Source: Octopus vulgaris (taxonomy: Eukaryota). From it: a stretch of 64,000 nt of DNA. The stretch spans positions 18,414,001 to 18,478,000 of the forward strand of contig OX597824.1 in the NCBI GenBank assembly GCA_951406725.2, read 5' to 3'. The position numbers and the translations under genes were made by a program. The notes under the pieces were generated by a model. The model ran no database searches. It saw only the letters and a program-made list of their open reading frames with translations, and had not been told where the DNA came from. Of this stretch, positions 2,455 through 63,750 are shown in pieces. Each line of letters begins with the position of its first letter. Within the stretch, counting starts at the first letter, position 1.

Positions 2455-3053
2455 ATTTCCCTACTACTCACAAGGGGCTAAACATAGAGAGGACAAACAA
2501 GAACAGACAAAGGGATTAAGTCGATTATATCGACCCCAGCGCGTAACTGGTATTATTTAATCGACCCTGAAAAGATAAAAAGCAAAGTCGACCTCGGCGG
2601 AATTTGAACTCAGAACGTAGCGGCAGACGAAATACCTATTTATTTACTACCCACAAGGAGCTAAACACAGAGAGGACAAACAAGGACAGACAAACGGATT
2701 AAGTCGTTTATATCGACCCCAGTGCGTAACTGGTACTTATTTAACCGACCCCGAAAGGATGAAAGGCAAAGTCGACCTGGGTGGAACTTGAACTCAGAAC
2801 GTAGCGGTAGACGAAACACCTATGTCTTTACTACCCACAGAGAGGACAAACAAGGACAGACAAACAAGGACAGACAAACGGATTAAGTCGATTATATCAA
2901 TCCCAGTGCGTAACTGGTACTTATTTAACCGACCCCGAAAGATGAAAAGCAAAGTCGACCCTCGGCGGAATTTGAACTCAGAGCGTAGCGGCAGACGAAA
3001 TACCGCTAAGTAATTCGCCCGGCGTACTAACGTTTCTGCCAGCTCGCCACCTT
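2455..3053 (-). mobile_element. SINE family B, head plus three tandem body units
   Basis: tRNA-like head AAGG(C/T)GGCGAGCTGGCAGAAACGTTAG, B-box GAGTTCAAATTCC, central GCCTTTCATCCTTTCGGGGTCG. Imperfect TSD TCAAAACTCTAAAAAT / TCAAAGCTCTTAAAAAT. Confidence 0.87.
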
Positions 3054-9372: not shown

Positions 9373-9879
9373 GACGCCGACGACGACAAAAACACGAGAG
9401 CAGCTATAACAAAATCGTGTTGGCTAGATTAAAAACTAATTAATCAGATATTTTATTCTTTTTTTTAAAATTTTACTTATATCAATTAATAAATTTTAAA
9501 ATTGAATATAAATATTTGTTTTTCAAACAATAGAATTTCTTTGCAATCCTTTTGTACTTCGCGGAGCTATATCTACATATCCATTTCTTTTATAACACGA
9601 AGAATATACAAAATCTGTAAAAAAAAAAAAACAAGTAGTTTTAGATTCGAAAATTAATCTAAAGCATGCAAGCATTGAAAGACGTTACTTTTGGCAATTT
9701 CAGAGAATTACGTACATATCTCACACATAATAATTTAATATTTAGATGTTGTAGATTAATATTAACGTTATATCAGTTTCAATATGATGTCATTTTAATA
9801 CAGTTCTATATTTAAGAGATGAGGAATTATGTACATTATTTACACTTGGCGGATATTTGTCCTCATGTTCTTTGTTGTT

Positions 9880-9925
9880 AACACAACGTTTCGGCTGATA
9901 TACCCTCCAGCCTTCGTCAGGTGTC
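9880..9925 (-). ncRNA. Minimal type I hammerhead ribozyme (Penelope-type)
   Basis: Sense: GACAC CUGACGA A GGCUG-gaggguauau-CAGCC GAAAC GUU GUGUU. Complete core, 5-bp stems I and II, palindromic AACGUU replacing stem III. Confidence 0.85.
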
Positions 9926-9983
9926 TTGGGGAAATTTCGAACCAGGGTTCTCATTCCTAAGCTACTTTTCGATATTATTATTA

Positions 9984-10052
<69 letters not shown>

Positions 10053-10145
10053 TTCAACATTAAAGTTTAATTTGTCAAAATATTTTCGTCGCTTTAAGAC
10101 CGCGACCTGTTCACTGACAAAAAACCTGCAGATGCAGCACGGATT

Positions 10146-10196
10146 TTTGTCAGTGAACAGGTCGCGGTCTCATAGCGACGAAAATATTTTGACAAA
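10146..10196 (+). ncRNA. Minimal hammerhead variant with G3-C8 core (inverted copy at 10071-10121, minus)
   Basis: UUUGUCA GUGAACA G GUCGC-9nt-GCGAC GAAA AUA UUU UGACAAA. 7-bp stem I, 5-bp stem II, palindromic AAUAUU. Confidence 0.68.
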
Positions 10197-10338
10197 TTAA
10201 ACTTAAATGTTGAAGTGAATCGAACGGCTTTTGTGTGTTTCTTAAATGGCTTACAAACACCTTCCACGCTGCAATTGTTTTCGTTTCAGCACACGATCTC
10301 AGATCAAATCACTTGCTATGCAAGTACATCCCATATTA

Positions 10339-10414
<76 letters not shown>

Positions 10415-10427
10415 CATTATTATTATT

Positions 10428-10967
10428 GAGTTTGAAAGAAGTGCATGCCATCAAAGTGACACTGGAGTACAAATATACGAAGCCCAGTATACCCATCATG
10501 ACTACCTGTCTGATAAGGGTACACCAGGCACATGCATCACAACCATATGTGCGCGACATGGTGATCTCATATCAAGATAAACAGCACATGACCTTGCAAG
10601 TGGGACCTAGTTAGATTTTTTTCTGGTCCAGTAACCCATCCTGCTCAAAAGTGTTGTTTAAGGATGTTGAACGAAACACCCATATTTCCAGAGGTGAATT
10701 ATTCAAACCCCAAAGAATCCCTCTCAACACATGGCTATGATGCTCCTCCACTACTTCTGCTCGTGATCAGAGATGCACATATCATCAGCCACTAAGGGAC
10801 ATGGTCAACTGGTTAAGGTCAAACAACTGACAAGCAAATCTGTGGTATTGAGCAGAATATTTACTGTAGCCCGTCTTTTATACCAAGACAAAACAATGTA
10901 CATAATAACACTTCCAATCAGTTAAGATCAGAAGCCACGAGAGCCACTGCCTGGTACTGCATCAGGT
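10428..10967. mobile_element. Unclassified 540-bp insertion within (ATT)n
   Basis: Higher-GC block bounded by (ATT)n on both sides and absent from the uninterrupted copy at 62803-63139. Confidence 0.55.
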
Positions 10968-11261
10968 CATCAGTATTATTATTATCATTATTATTATTTA
11001 TTTTTTCCAGGTCACTGCCTGGAATCGAACTCGGAATTTTGGGGTTAGTAGCCCGCGCTCTCAACCACTACGTCATATGCCCGTATAGTATATGTATACA
11101 TTACTTTCAATATATCTGTTTTATGATATGTAGATGTTCTTGTTCAGAAGGACACTCAACAATGGTTAGTCACGTATTCGACCTTTTGACTATTACATGC
11201 GGCCAACTATTTCGGTGACTTACACCAGAGTGTGTACTTGAACAAGGAAGGGCTTATCAAT

Positions 11262-11497
11262 CTGTATTTTTGAGATGAGGAATTATGTACACTATTTACA
11301 ATAGATGGATAGGTGTCCTCAACTTACTTGTTGTTACCACAACGTTTCGGCCGATGTACTGTCCAGCCTTCATCAAGTGTTCTGGTAGAATTTCGAACCC
11401 AAACCTTTATTTGACTAATGGGGTACACTGTTCTCATTTCTAAGGTATGTTTCTGATGTCAATTTTCTGTTGATATTATTTTTCAAGTCCCTGCCAT
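11262..11497 (-). mobile_element. Older, diverged copy of the hammerhead-tail element
   Basis: GAGATGAGGAATTATGTAC...AACGTTTCGG..CCAGCCTTCATCAAG matches the tail at about 9815-9960. Confidence 0.75.
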
Positions 11498-39577: not shown

Positions 39578-39841
39578 TGCCCCTCTCTATACATCGGGCA
39601 AAGAGGACGCTGCTTGGCTGACTGGTTCGCGGAACACCTCCGAGACATCCGACTCGGCAATGCCACCTCGATCTTTAGCCATTTCCGCTCTACCAGTCAC
39701 TCTTTGCAACACCTGTCTATGTTTGGATTGTCCTTGCACAGGGACCATCCGGACTCCCGTTTGCGCAGTGAACAGGGTTTAATCTTCTCTCTTCGCTCCT
39801 TTGCGCCACTTGGGCTCAACTCTCCTCCCCTCTTCATGTAA
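39578..39841 (+). pseudogene. Penelope-like element GIY-YIG endonuclease C-terminal remnant
   Basis: In-frame translation CPSLYIGQRGRCLADWFAEHLRDI...SHF...RLRSEQGLIFSLRSFAPLGLN carries the YIG, EH, E and GLN motifs; followed by a C/T-rich tract. Confidence 0.82.
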
Positions 39842-56551: not shown

Positions 56552-57340
56552 CCTATTTCTTTACTACCCACAATGGGCTAAACACAGACAGGACAAACAA
56601 GGACAGACAAACGGATTAAGTCGATTAAATCGACCCCAGTGCGTAACTGGTACTTATTTAATCGACCCCGAAAGGATGAAAGGCAAAGTCGACCTCGGCA
56701 GAATTTGAACTCAAAACATAGCGGTAGACGAAATACCTATTTCTTTACTACCCACAAGGGGCTAAACACAGAGGGGACAAACAAGGACAGACAAACGGGT
56801 TAAGTCGATTATATCGACCCCCAGTGCGTAACTGGTACTTATTTAATCGACCCCGAAAGGATGAAAGGCAAAGTCGACCTCGGCGGAATTTGAACTCAAA
56901 ACGTAGCGGTAGACGAAATACCTATTTCTTTACTACCCACAAGGGGCTAAACACAGAGGGGACAAACAAGGACAGACAAACGGATTAAGTCGATTAAATC
57001 GACCCCAGTGCGTAACTGGTACTTATTTAATCGACCCCGAAAGGATGAAAGGCAAAGTCGACCTCGGCAGAATTTGAACTCAAAACGTAGCGGTAGACGA
57101 AATACCTATTTCTTTACTACCCACAAGGGGCTAAACACAGAGGGGACAAACAAGGACAGACAAACGGATTAAGTCGATTATATCGACCCCCAGTGCGTAA
57201 CTGGTACTTATTTAATCGACCCCGAAAGGATGAATGGCAAAGTCGACCTTGGCGGAATTTGAACTCAGAACGTAACAGCAGACGAAATACTGCAAAGCAT
57301 TTCGTCCGGCGTGCTAACGTTTCAGCCAGCGCGCCGCCTT
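56552..57340 (-). mobile_element. SINE family B, head plus four tandem 184-185 bp units
   Basis: Units start at 56552, 56736, 56921 and 57105; single head at about 57290-57340; TSD-like TTAGCAAGTT on both flanks. Confidence 0.92.
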
Positions 57341-62239: not shown

Positions 62240-62432
62240 GGAGGCACATGGCCTAGTGGTTAGAGCAGCGGACTCGCGATCAAGGTATCGTGGGTTCGAA
62301 TCTCAAACCGTGTGATCTGTGTGTTTATGAGCGAAACGCCTAAGCTCCACGCGTCCAGGTAAGGAACCTCTACGCCAATGAAACCGGAAAACCGGCCCTT
62401 ATGAGCCAGGCATGGCTTGTGAAGGAACAAAC
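62240..62432 (+). mobile_element. Short SINE: family-C-like head with family-D-like tail
   Basis: GGAGGCACATGGCCTAGTGGTTAGAGCAGCGGACTCGCG head; GAAACCGGAAAACCGGCCC tail. Confidence 0.68.
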
Positions 62433-62711
62433 AAACCTGGAATGTAATAAAGTATTGTGGACAACGTTTAACAAATGTGTTCGGTAGAAAAGCTTTGTAA
62501 ATACATTATTAATTTCTTCTAAATTAAGTCTTAGGAAATATATATTTATTTAAATTATTTACAATTGAAGGATATTCGTCCTCAACTTGTTTGTTGTTAA
62601 CACAACGCTTCGGCTGATAATCCCTCCAGCCTTCTTCAGGTGTCTTGGGGAAATGTCGAACCTGGGTTCTCATTCCTAAGGTATTTTTCGATGTTGTTAT
62701 TATTGTTATTA

Positions 62712-62785
<74 letters not shown>

Positions 62786-62802
62786 CACTTCACCATATGC
62801 CC

Positions 62803-63139
62803 ACGGGCATATGGTGTAGTGGTTAAGAGTGCGGGCTACTAACCCCAAGATTACGAGTTCGATTCCAGGCAGTGACCTGAATAATAATAATATTAATAAT
62901 AATAATTATAAGTAATAATAATAATAATAATAATAACAACAACAACAACAACAACATCGAAAAATACCTTAGGAATGAGAACCCAGGTTCAAAATTTCCC
63001 CAAGACACCTGATGAAAGCTGGAGGGTATATCAGCCAAAACATTGTGTTAACAACAATCAAGATGAAGCCGAATAACCATCAATTGTAAATAATGTAAAT
63101 AGTGTACATAATTCCTCATCTCTTAAATATAGAACCGTA
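62803..63139 (+). mobile_element. tRNA-head + (AAT)n + hammerhead-tail element, preceded by its own inverted partial copy (about 62545-62802)
   Basis: A-box TGGTGTAGTGG, B-box GAGTTCGATTCC, (AAT)n/(AAC)n spacer, tail with CTGATGA-stem II-(G>A)AAAC. Confidence 0.85.
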
Positions 63140-63368
63140 TATATTTATGTATCATCAAAGCATTTAATTTCCAAAATATATCTTGTTAAGTACGGGATGC
63201 CTATTATCAATTATATCGTCTTTTAAGACGGAAACTTCAATACTTACATTCATCGTATAATATAACACCAGAATTACATGAACATTTTTTTTTCTCGTTT
63301 TATTATGAACCTCATTCATTTCCAAACCATCCAGTTCCAGAGGCATGCCCTTAAAATTATCACAGTGG

Positions 63369-63750
63369 TGGAAGCACTCCGTCGGTTACGACGACGAGGG
63401 TTCCGATTGATCTGATCAACGGAACAGCCTGCTCGTGAAATTAACGTGTAAGTGGCTGAGCACTCCACAGACACGTGCACCCTTAACGTAGTTCTCGGGG
63501 ATATTCATCGTGACACAGAGAGTGACAAGGCCGGCTCTTTGAAATACAGGCACAACAGAAACAGGAAGTAAGAGTGAGAGAAAATTGTGGTGAAGGAGTA
63601 CAGCAGGGATCGCCACCATCCCTGCCGGAGCCTCGTGGAGCTTTAGGAGTTTTTGCTCAATAAACACTCACAACGCCCGGTCTGGGAATCGAAACCGCGA
63701 TCCTACGACCGCAAGTCCGCTGCCCTAACCACTGGGCCATTGCGCCTCCA
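63369..63750 (-). mobile_element. SINE family C
   Basis: Full copy with TSD AAATT(A/C)TCACAGT. Confidence 0.9.

Follow-up and report, generated by a model that had tools for sequence, protein, structure and literature searches.

A repeat at positions 62541-63139 of a 64,000-nucleotide stretch of the Octopus vulgaris genome (here called the window) carries a head with the promoter boxes of a tRNA gene, an (AAT)n spacer and a tail with a hammerhead ribozyme motif. It raises the question of whether this is a non-autonomous SINE moved by the machinery of a Penelope-like element (PLE), as a sequence-only reading had proposed, or part of such an element itself. We find that the locus is a dead head-to-head double copy of the end repeat (pLTR) of a Penelope element, and not a separate SINE. 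The pLTR, which comprises head, spacer and tail, belongs to an autonomous PLE, probably of the Penelope/Poseidon clade, and we consider it probable, at roughly 0.6, that within this pLTR the tRNA-derived head serves as an internal RNA polymerase III (Pol III) promoter for the whole element. The earlier interpretation therefore stands in describing a tRNA-headed unit with a PLE-type hammerhead that was moved by Penelope and not by a LINE, but falls in describing a SINE that borrows this machinery, as the unit is the pLTR of an autonomous element.

Anatomy of the flagged locus

The features of the locus and its relatives in the window are collected in Table 1. The parts named at the outset (a tRNA-derived head with A and B boxes, an (AAT)n spacer and a tail of about 185 bp) could all be located, at 62805-63139, and the sense strand indeed lacks a TTTT (T4) terminator across the unit, with the first T4 at 63221. 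The inverted partial duplicate reported upstream, with its centre at about 62803, corresponds to the mirror arm. The two arms share 189 nt at 89% complementarity around a centre at 62803-62804, where the GCCCAC leader and GGGCA form a palindrome, and the tail of the right arm stops at the long 3′ end of the family (tail position ~175). While the mirror arm is real, the ‘fold-back’ by which it was explained is only one of two possible origins. The minimal hammerhead motif is present in the tail as claimed, but its core is mutated in both arms: G has become A at 63037 and 63042 in the right arm (G12 and the G of GUU), and A15.1 has become G in the mirror arm.

Table 1 Features of the flagged locus and related pLTR copies in the window.
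Feature	Position	Strand	Remark
tRNA-derived head, right arm of pLTR	62805..62879	+	Cloverleaf lost
GCCCAC leader	62799..62804	+	G62799 is the putative RNA 5′ end (-6)
A box	62812..62822	+	One CpG decay (C-to-T) in the flagged copy
B box	62857..62865	+	Seen in sequence
(AAT/AAC)n spacer	62880..62955	+	Subfamily B counterpart is an unexpanded A-rich linker
pLTR tail, 184 nt	62956..63139	+	Doubles as first 156 nt of the PLE ORF (ATG 62975)
Minimal type I hammerhead, mutated in the flagged copy	63004..63049	+	Predicted cut after 63044
Mirror arm	62541..62802	-	First 20 nt of head, spacer, tail to short 3′ end (~147); mutated core
Target-site duplication, left copy, 11 nt	62539..62549		
Target-site duplication, right copy, 11 nt	63138..63148		
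Second copy of the same pLTR	9799..11084	-	Intact hammerhead core 9920-9885; two insertions interrupt the spacer
pLTR remnant, sister subfamily B (end of head, linker, tail)	11262..11497	-	

The head-spacer-tail order recurs in the second copy, as had been noted, and a motif scan finds there the only intact hammerhead core of the window. What had been taken for an older tail copy beside it belongs instead to a sister subfamily, B, which has a head and an ORF distinct from those of the flagged family. The Penelope GIY-YIG remnant at 39578, which had been suggested as a partner, is unrelated: it is a member of a different, C-rich PLE family with an extra zinc finger, which we take to be Neptune-like from its motif, and in BLASTP it gave no match to the endonuclease of the pLTR family (best E 3.2). 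This remnant (39578-39841, +) represents a younger family, with copies (L316-L323) that have open frames of up to 835 codons and long C/T-rich 3′ tracts downstream.

Several other repeats were seen in the window. A 540-bp element at 10426-10965 (minus) is inserted in the (AAT)n spacer of the second copy; it is also found in the spacer at loci L003, L029, L112, L143, L158, L181, L187 and L229 and, given this recurrence, appears to target (AAT)n. The same spacer holds a hairpin element (10051-10216) with 76-nt arms that are 95% complementary. Tandem arrays of a 184-185 bp unit, up to 96% alike, lie at 2462-3004 (three copies) and 56552-57290 (four copies), and could be a satellite or a retrozyme-like repeat. 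Further tRNA-SINE heads lie at 62242-62316 (+), 20278-20204 (-) and 63365-63750 (-).

An autonomous element with this end repeat

In the 2.8-Gb genome, exact 25-mers were counted 6,990 times for the hammerhead, 2,521 times for the start of the head, 702 times just upstream of the head and 75 times at the tail-to-ORF junction, with reversed controls at 0. Calibrated by the share of sampled copies that match, these counts correspond to about 30,000 arms with the hammerhead, 11,300 with the head start and 2,000 with the sequence just upstream of the head. The family looks dead, since the median identity to the majority sequence is 93% and no ORF stretch exceeds 96%.

The linkage of head and tail holds in genomic copies, with a tail found within 900 nt of 60 of 70 position-ordered heads. 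Of the ten remaining heads, nine were inspected and lead into other insertions or unrelated flanks, with no second shared tail among them. The tail belongs to a Penelope element of the same genome, as it is joined in direct orientation to the ORF start at loci found with the 5′ part of the ORF. The GIY-YIG end of the ORF lies upstream of the head at 2 of the first 30 tail loci; at 30 loci found by a GIY-YIG-end piece, a set that includes the query and a few duplicated loci, the head follows directly in 28 and the tail in 26. We see the complete layout pLTR-ORF-pLTR (tail-ORF-tail) at L280 and L285 and a full head-spacer-tail ahead of the ORF start at L287 and L512, and pLTRs flank the ORF in both direct and inverted arrangement.

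The majority sequence of 37 copies has a single open frame of 835 codons, encoding a reverse transcriptase (RT) and, C-terminally, a GIY-YIG endonuclease (EN). The frame opens with an ATG at tail position 20, crosses the hammerhead and closes with a stop codon 29 nt short of the next head. The RT was matched by Pfam RVT_1 (E 5.5e-10); the natural ORF piece examined gave no Pfam GIY-YIG match, and the endonuclease was recognised by motif. A CX2-5CxxC linker (a zinc finger between RT and EN) was not seen in the majority ORF and is present in the 39578 family. Protein relatives show 36-72% identity among the 120 listed of 1,009 matches, with 60-72% for P0001-P0006, the nearest headless ones. In subfamily B, as in subfamily A, the ORF is followed by head, linker and tail; the B majority, called over 1,003 nt only because a search with a B ORF piece gave mostly subfamily A, differs from that of A by 34 synonymous and 19 replacement codons over 279 codons.

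Three other ideas about the unit were considered. An intron in the tail (GT..AG, 38/47 nt) was dropped because the frame is open from the upstream ATG in both subfamilies, with in-frame indels only; the second ATG is often GTG in subfamily B. A poly-Asn spacer is not supported, as the spacer precedes the ATG. An origin by insertion into the (AAT)n tail of a SINE is not needed, since subfamily B has a plain A-rich linker. At one locus (L505), three tandem units, each made up of the tail and the initial 79 nt of the ORF, form a retrozyme-like array derived from the PLE.

A probable Pol III promoter and the start of the RNA

The 5′ ends of the copies cluster at the head. Among 70 head matches (the first 70 of 100 listed on one contig, with a few duplicates and blind to ends within the first 25 nt of the head), 56 have their 5′ end at -20 to 0, where values below -7 are mostly mirror sequence. 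Another 14 extend 62-922 nt into the ORF, and no end falls at -21 to -61. In a sample chosen by the tail, 41 of 76 arms reach the head, with 13 ends at +39 to +11, 24 at +7 to -7 and 4 beyond. Thus 24 of the 28 arms reaching +7 stop by -7, against 14% expected (binomial P 4e-17 when set against the frequency of ends within the head). Taking every locus together, 95 of 99 arms free of mirror and ORF sequence end at -7 to +2. At three independent tandem junctions (L495, L507 and L516/517) 1-12 extra A's precede a downstream unit whose first base is G-6; in a fourth junction that unit begins near -5, and in two others within the head. Most 5′ ends scatter from -4 to 0 and not at -6. G-6 lies 13 nt before the A box, a spacing known from SINE start sites. 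These 5′ ends mark an RNA end at the head; a peak of this kind marks a transcription start irrespective of the polymerase, a point against taking it as evidence for Pol III.

The A and B boxes match the consensus in both subfamilies, and the two differences within them fall on degenerate positions; box conservation between A and B alone is not significant. The tRNA-like head and the hammerhead rest on motifs, because ARAGORN and Rfam call neither a tRNA at the head nor a hammerhead in the tail, and neither family is among the best 150 of 276 matches in a further listing. The closest of the sampled tRNAs are Arg(TCG/TCT). Two SINE heads of the window (62242-62316 and 20278-20204) equal or surpass the Arg tRNAs in their alignment to the PLE head, so the head may derive from a captured SINE. 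A tRNA-Asn parent is unsupported, Asn not being among the tRNAs sampled. Elsewhere, tRNA-Cys genes and variants are clustered within 3 kb at L329. No A/B boxes were found downstream of 52 control PLE ORFs, over 700 nt at most and much less for many.

On the sense strand of the 2,929-nt majority sequence there are 0 T4 runs, against 33 on the other strand. The within-sequence test of this depletion is weak (a synonymous codon shuffle expects 2.9 T4, P 0.03; first-order Markov, P 0.09), while T-matched controls predict 6.3 (Poisson P 0.002). In 52 control open frames from 80 metagenome PLE loci, which are only remotely related (28-48% amino-acid identity), share some of their source assemblies, and are single copies set against the majority sequence of a family, there are 480 T4 against 420 expected. 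Only one of the 52, a 1.25-kb piece, is free of T4, and all 22 control ORFs of at least 650 codons carry at least four; three control ORFs have T4-free stretches of 1.8-2.2 kb. The observed/expected ratio of TTT in the element is 0.50, below all 52 controls. Compared with the 30 controls of at least 1.5 kb, TTTT is the most depleted of 256 4-mers, with TTCT second, and TTT is first of 64 3-mers, on z values that depend on the pseudocount. Subfamily B has no T4 over its 1,003 called bases. The other (39578) PLE family of the genome is not depleted, with 5 T4 observed and 5.7 expected. In the PLE ORFs at L418 and L470, all T4 runs lie within the first 600 nt and the remaining 1.8-2.2 kb are free of them.

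Because the boxes fit, the 5′ ends lie at the head and TTTT is depleted, the element is likely transcribed by Pol III. We put forward more tentatively, at somewhat less than even odds, the full account in which the 2.9-kb RNA, including the mRNA of the 835-residue RT-endonuclease, is made by Pol III from a captured tRNA-type promoter, the coding sequence has evolved terminator avoidance, and tens of thousands of SINE-like copies have been shed from the RNA 5′ end. Against Pol III, its RNAs are uncapped, and translation of an 835-codon ORF is unexplained. Kojima, writing of LTR elements, argues that Pol II is obligatory for autonomous elements (PMC10886601, section 4.2).

It is on the whole unlikely, though to be taken seriously, that the mRNA is instead made by Pol II, from the head or from an upstream start in the same pLTR, with Pol III making no more than short RNAs that serve as templates and the missing T runs reflecting an A-rich bias or the avoidance of splice or processing signals. 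This would remove the translation problem and would agree with the promoters described for PLEs, which are of Pol II type and inside the pLTR (passages of PMC2377424 and PMC8557442), and a codon-shuffle P of only 0.03 leaves room for it. It fits poorly, however, with a 5′ limit 13 nt before an A box, with a depletion that is strongest for TTTT, TTT and TTCT and spans the entire ORF, and with the undepleted second PLE family of the same genome. A head that is only a passenger is improbable. Here the 5′ pile-up would come from RT stalling or switching at the palindrome (-7 to +4), or from RNase P-like cutting of long RNAs where the tRNA-like part begins; the palindrome is indeed present, mirror sequence is found there in 17 of 70 copies, and many ends lie at 0/-1. 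But a hairpin should halt RT on its 3′ side (~+5), whereas most ends lie at or 5′ of 0, and tandem junctions that lack mirror sequence begin at G-6. The head has no acceptor stem any more, tRNA prediction gives no fold there, and T4 depletion is left unaccounted for.

Sequencing runs that contain the stretch include none recorded as RNA. In three raw RNA-seq runs (~6% of each sampled), depth was equal in both directions and 80-87% of reads extended into unlike flanks, with no shared start or end point of numerous molecules, and the joints listed include no GT-AG. This pattern fits passive read-through of dead copies and is neutral on polymerase and cleavage.

Short copies and known relatives

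Arms of the element have two fixed 3′ ends 30 nt apart: 69 of 76 end at tail positions 132-149 or 170-175, which lie 55-90 nt beyond the hammerhead cut site. Head-to-head pairs combine one long and one short 3′ end in 94 of 119 cases, and a duplication of at least 8 nt (mostly 12-13) is seen in 68 of 110 pairs, versus 1.8% when shuffled. For the Anolis Poseidon element PAc, reverse transcription is described as starting from two internal sites that define the tail, with nicks on both strands and use of uncleaved RNA (PMC11167929). The mirror arm is therefore ordinary, since its 3′ ends follow this known PLE mechanism; it arose either from two cDNAs or from one cDNA copied back. The modelled pairing energy of the 5′ palindrome is -11.8 kcal/mol from -6 against -5.6 from 0, and such pairing would let cDNA ends join.

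The hammerhead core is identical in subfamilies A and B and intact by motif in 78 of 190 copies. In dead copies, core decay is 3.7% against 4.7% elsewhere, and no compensatory stem changes are seen between A and B. The core of the second copy folds with helices I and II as expected, not significantly beyond shuffles (z -1.6). The minimal hammerheads described for PLE pLTRs (in parts of PMC4209133) share the short helix I, longer helix II and lack of helix III, the palindromic AACGUU for dimer pairing, and the occurrence of single and opposed copies from truncated PLEs. We see no difference from these, and the hammerhead part is ordinary. The ribozyme sits inside the ORF and is spanned by the copies; it may cut and circularise unit-length RNA, and in this way supply ORF-bearing copies.

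These steps can be arranged in a proposed cycle. Pol III would start at G-6 and read through the terminator-free element, and the protein would bind the ORF start and prime reverse transcription from either of two sites within the element, as in Anolis PAc. The cDNA would run off the RNA 5′ end after ~280 nt, giving SINE-looking copies. Head-to-head pairs, flanked by a ~12-bp duplication, would form when the 5′ palindrome joins two cDNAs whose priming took place on opposite strands, or when a single cDNA is copied back on itself. Read-through in tandem arrays, or circles of RNA cut by the hammerhead, would account for the copies that carry the ORF.

It is very improbable that the short copies are an independent non-autonomous SINE which acquired the pLTR and spreads from source copies of its own: although ~80% of intact-head copies begin at the head, and short copies carry promoter boxes and no terminator, in both subfamilies the autonomous element itself includes the head, short copies share their variants with ORF-attached copies and have nothing diagnostic, and, ending at RT start sites, they would, by analogy with PAc, lack the ORF sequence farther downstream that its template must contain (PMC11167929). 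The majority sequences of 107 short (head-starting) and 53 ORF-attached arms differ in one column, which is evenly split; no variants special to short copies were found in this comparison, and polymorphism ratios are alike (head 63, 40/63 versus 17/27; tail 57, 26/78 versus 9/37). We thus see no non-autonomous lineage distinct from its partner, in the sense used for SINE2, and the description of the unit as a non-autonomous SINE does not hold, as it lies within an autonomous element. Nor do we see tandem non-coding monomers bounded by the ribozyme cut, as for retrozymes and SM-alpha; the copies span the cut site.

Anolis PAc shares with this element a single ORF of RT and C-terminal GIY-YIG that overlaps the pLTR hammerhead, two RT start sites ~30 nt apart and AT-rich targets (PMC11167929). 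The octopus protein is 40% identical to an Anolis sagrei protein. Unlike Penelope/Poseidon PLEs including PAc, the octopus pLTR begins with a tRNA-derived A/B-box head. Penelope of D. virilis likewise has its start site and an internal promoter within the pLTR (PMC2377424), and an inverted 5′ pLTR with a one-sided tail (PMC8557442). Its promoter, however, is described as Pol II-type, TATA-less, with a DPE and a 75-nt intron (PMC2377424), whereas the octopus element has A/B boxes and a frame open without splicing in both subfamilies. A small-RNA-derived Pol III promoter in a terminal repeat is reported for the TRIMp3 elements Helenus, Ajax and Cassandra (PMC10886601); these are short non-coding LTR elements, while the octopus repeat belongs to a protein-coding PLE. 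Schistosoma SM-alpha, treated together with Sj-alpha, resembles it in combining a Pol III promoter with a hammerhead (PMC6765202), and non-LTR retrozymes share pLTR-related non-autonomous units (bioRxiv 10.64898/2026.07.22.740005). Both groups are non-coding, often tandem and ribozyme-released, unlike the octopus copies, which extend across the cut site and have an autonomous element as their origin. The octopus tRNA SINEs OK, OR1 and OR2 (Ohshima and Okada 1994) likewise have a tRNA-derived head. OR1 and OR2 are cited as CORE-SINEs, unlike the octopus unit, a distinction drawn from citations and not from sequence, and the unit was possibly described before under the name OK, OR1 or OR2.

In the literature covered (mostly titles and abstracts, exclusive of Repbase, Dfam, SINEBase and subscription papers), we find no PLE with a tRNA-type promoter and no account of a SINE mobilised by Penelope, and hammerheads are unmentioned in the passages and supplement consulted of a 2026 octopus repeat annotation (PMC13282606). 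What is new is a tRNA-type promoter in a PLE, probably of the Penelope/Poseidon clade; the hammerhead and mirror arm are ordinary. The sharp 5′ limit at -6/-7 and two 3′ ends give genome-scale confirmation of the internal initiation described for PAc, and automatic annotation is likely to class the ~30,000 arms as SINEs. If the proposal is true, SINE-like repeats can arise without any SINE, when copying of a PLE RNA runs off at its 5′ end, and the PLE hammerhead would gain a testable role. The octopus element would then also be a natural example, from an animal, of Pol III making a long RNA that codes for protein, and would raise the question of how an uncapped RNA gets translated.
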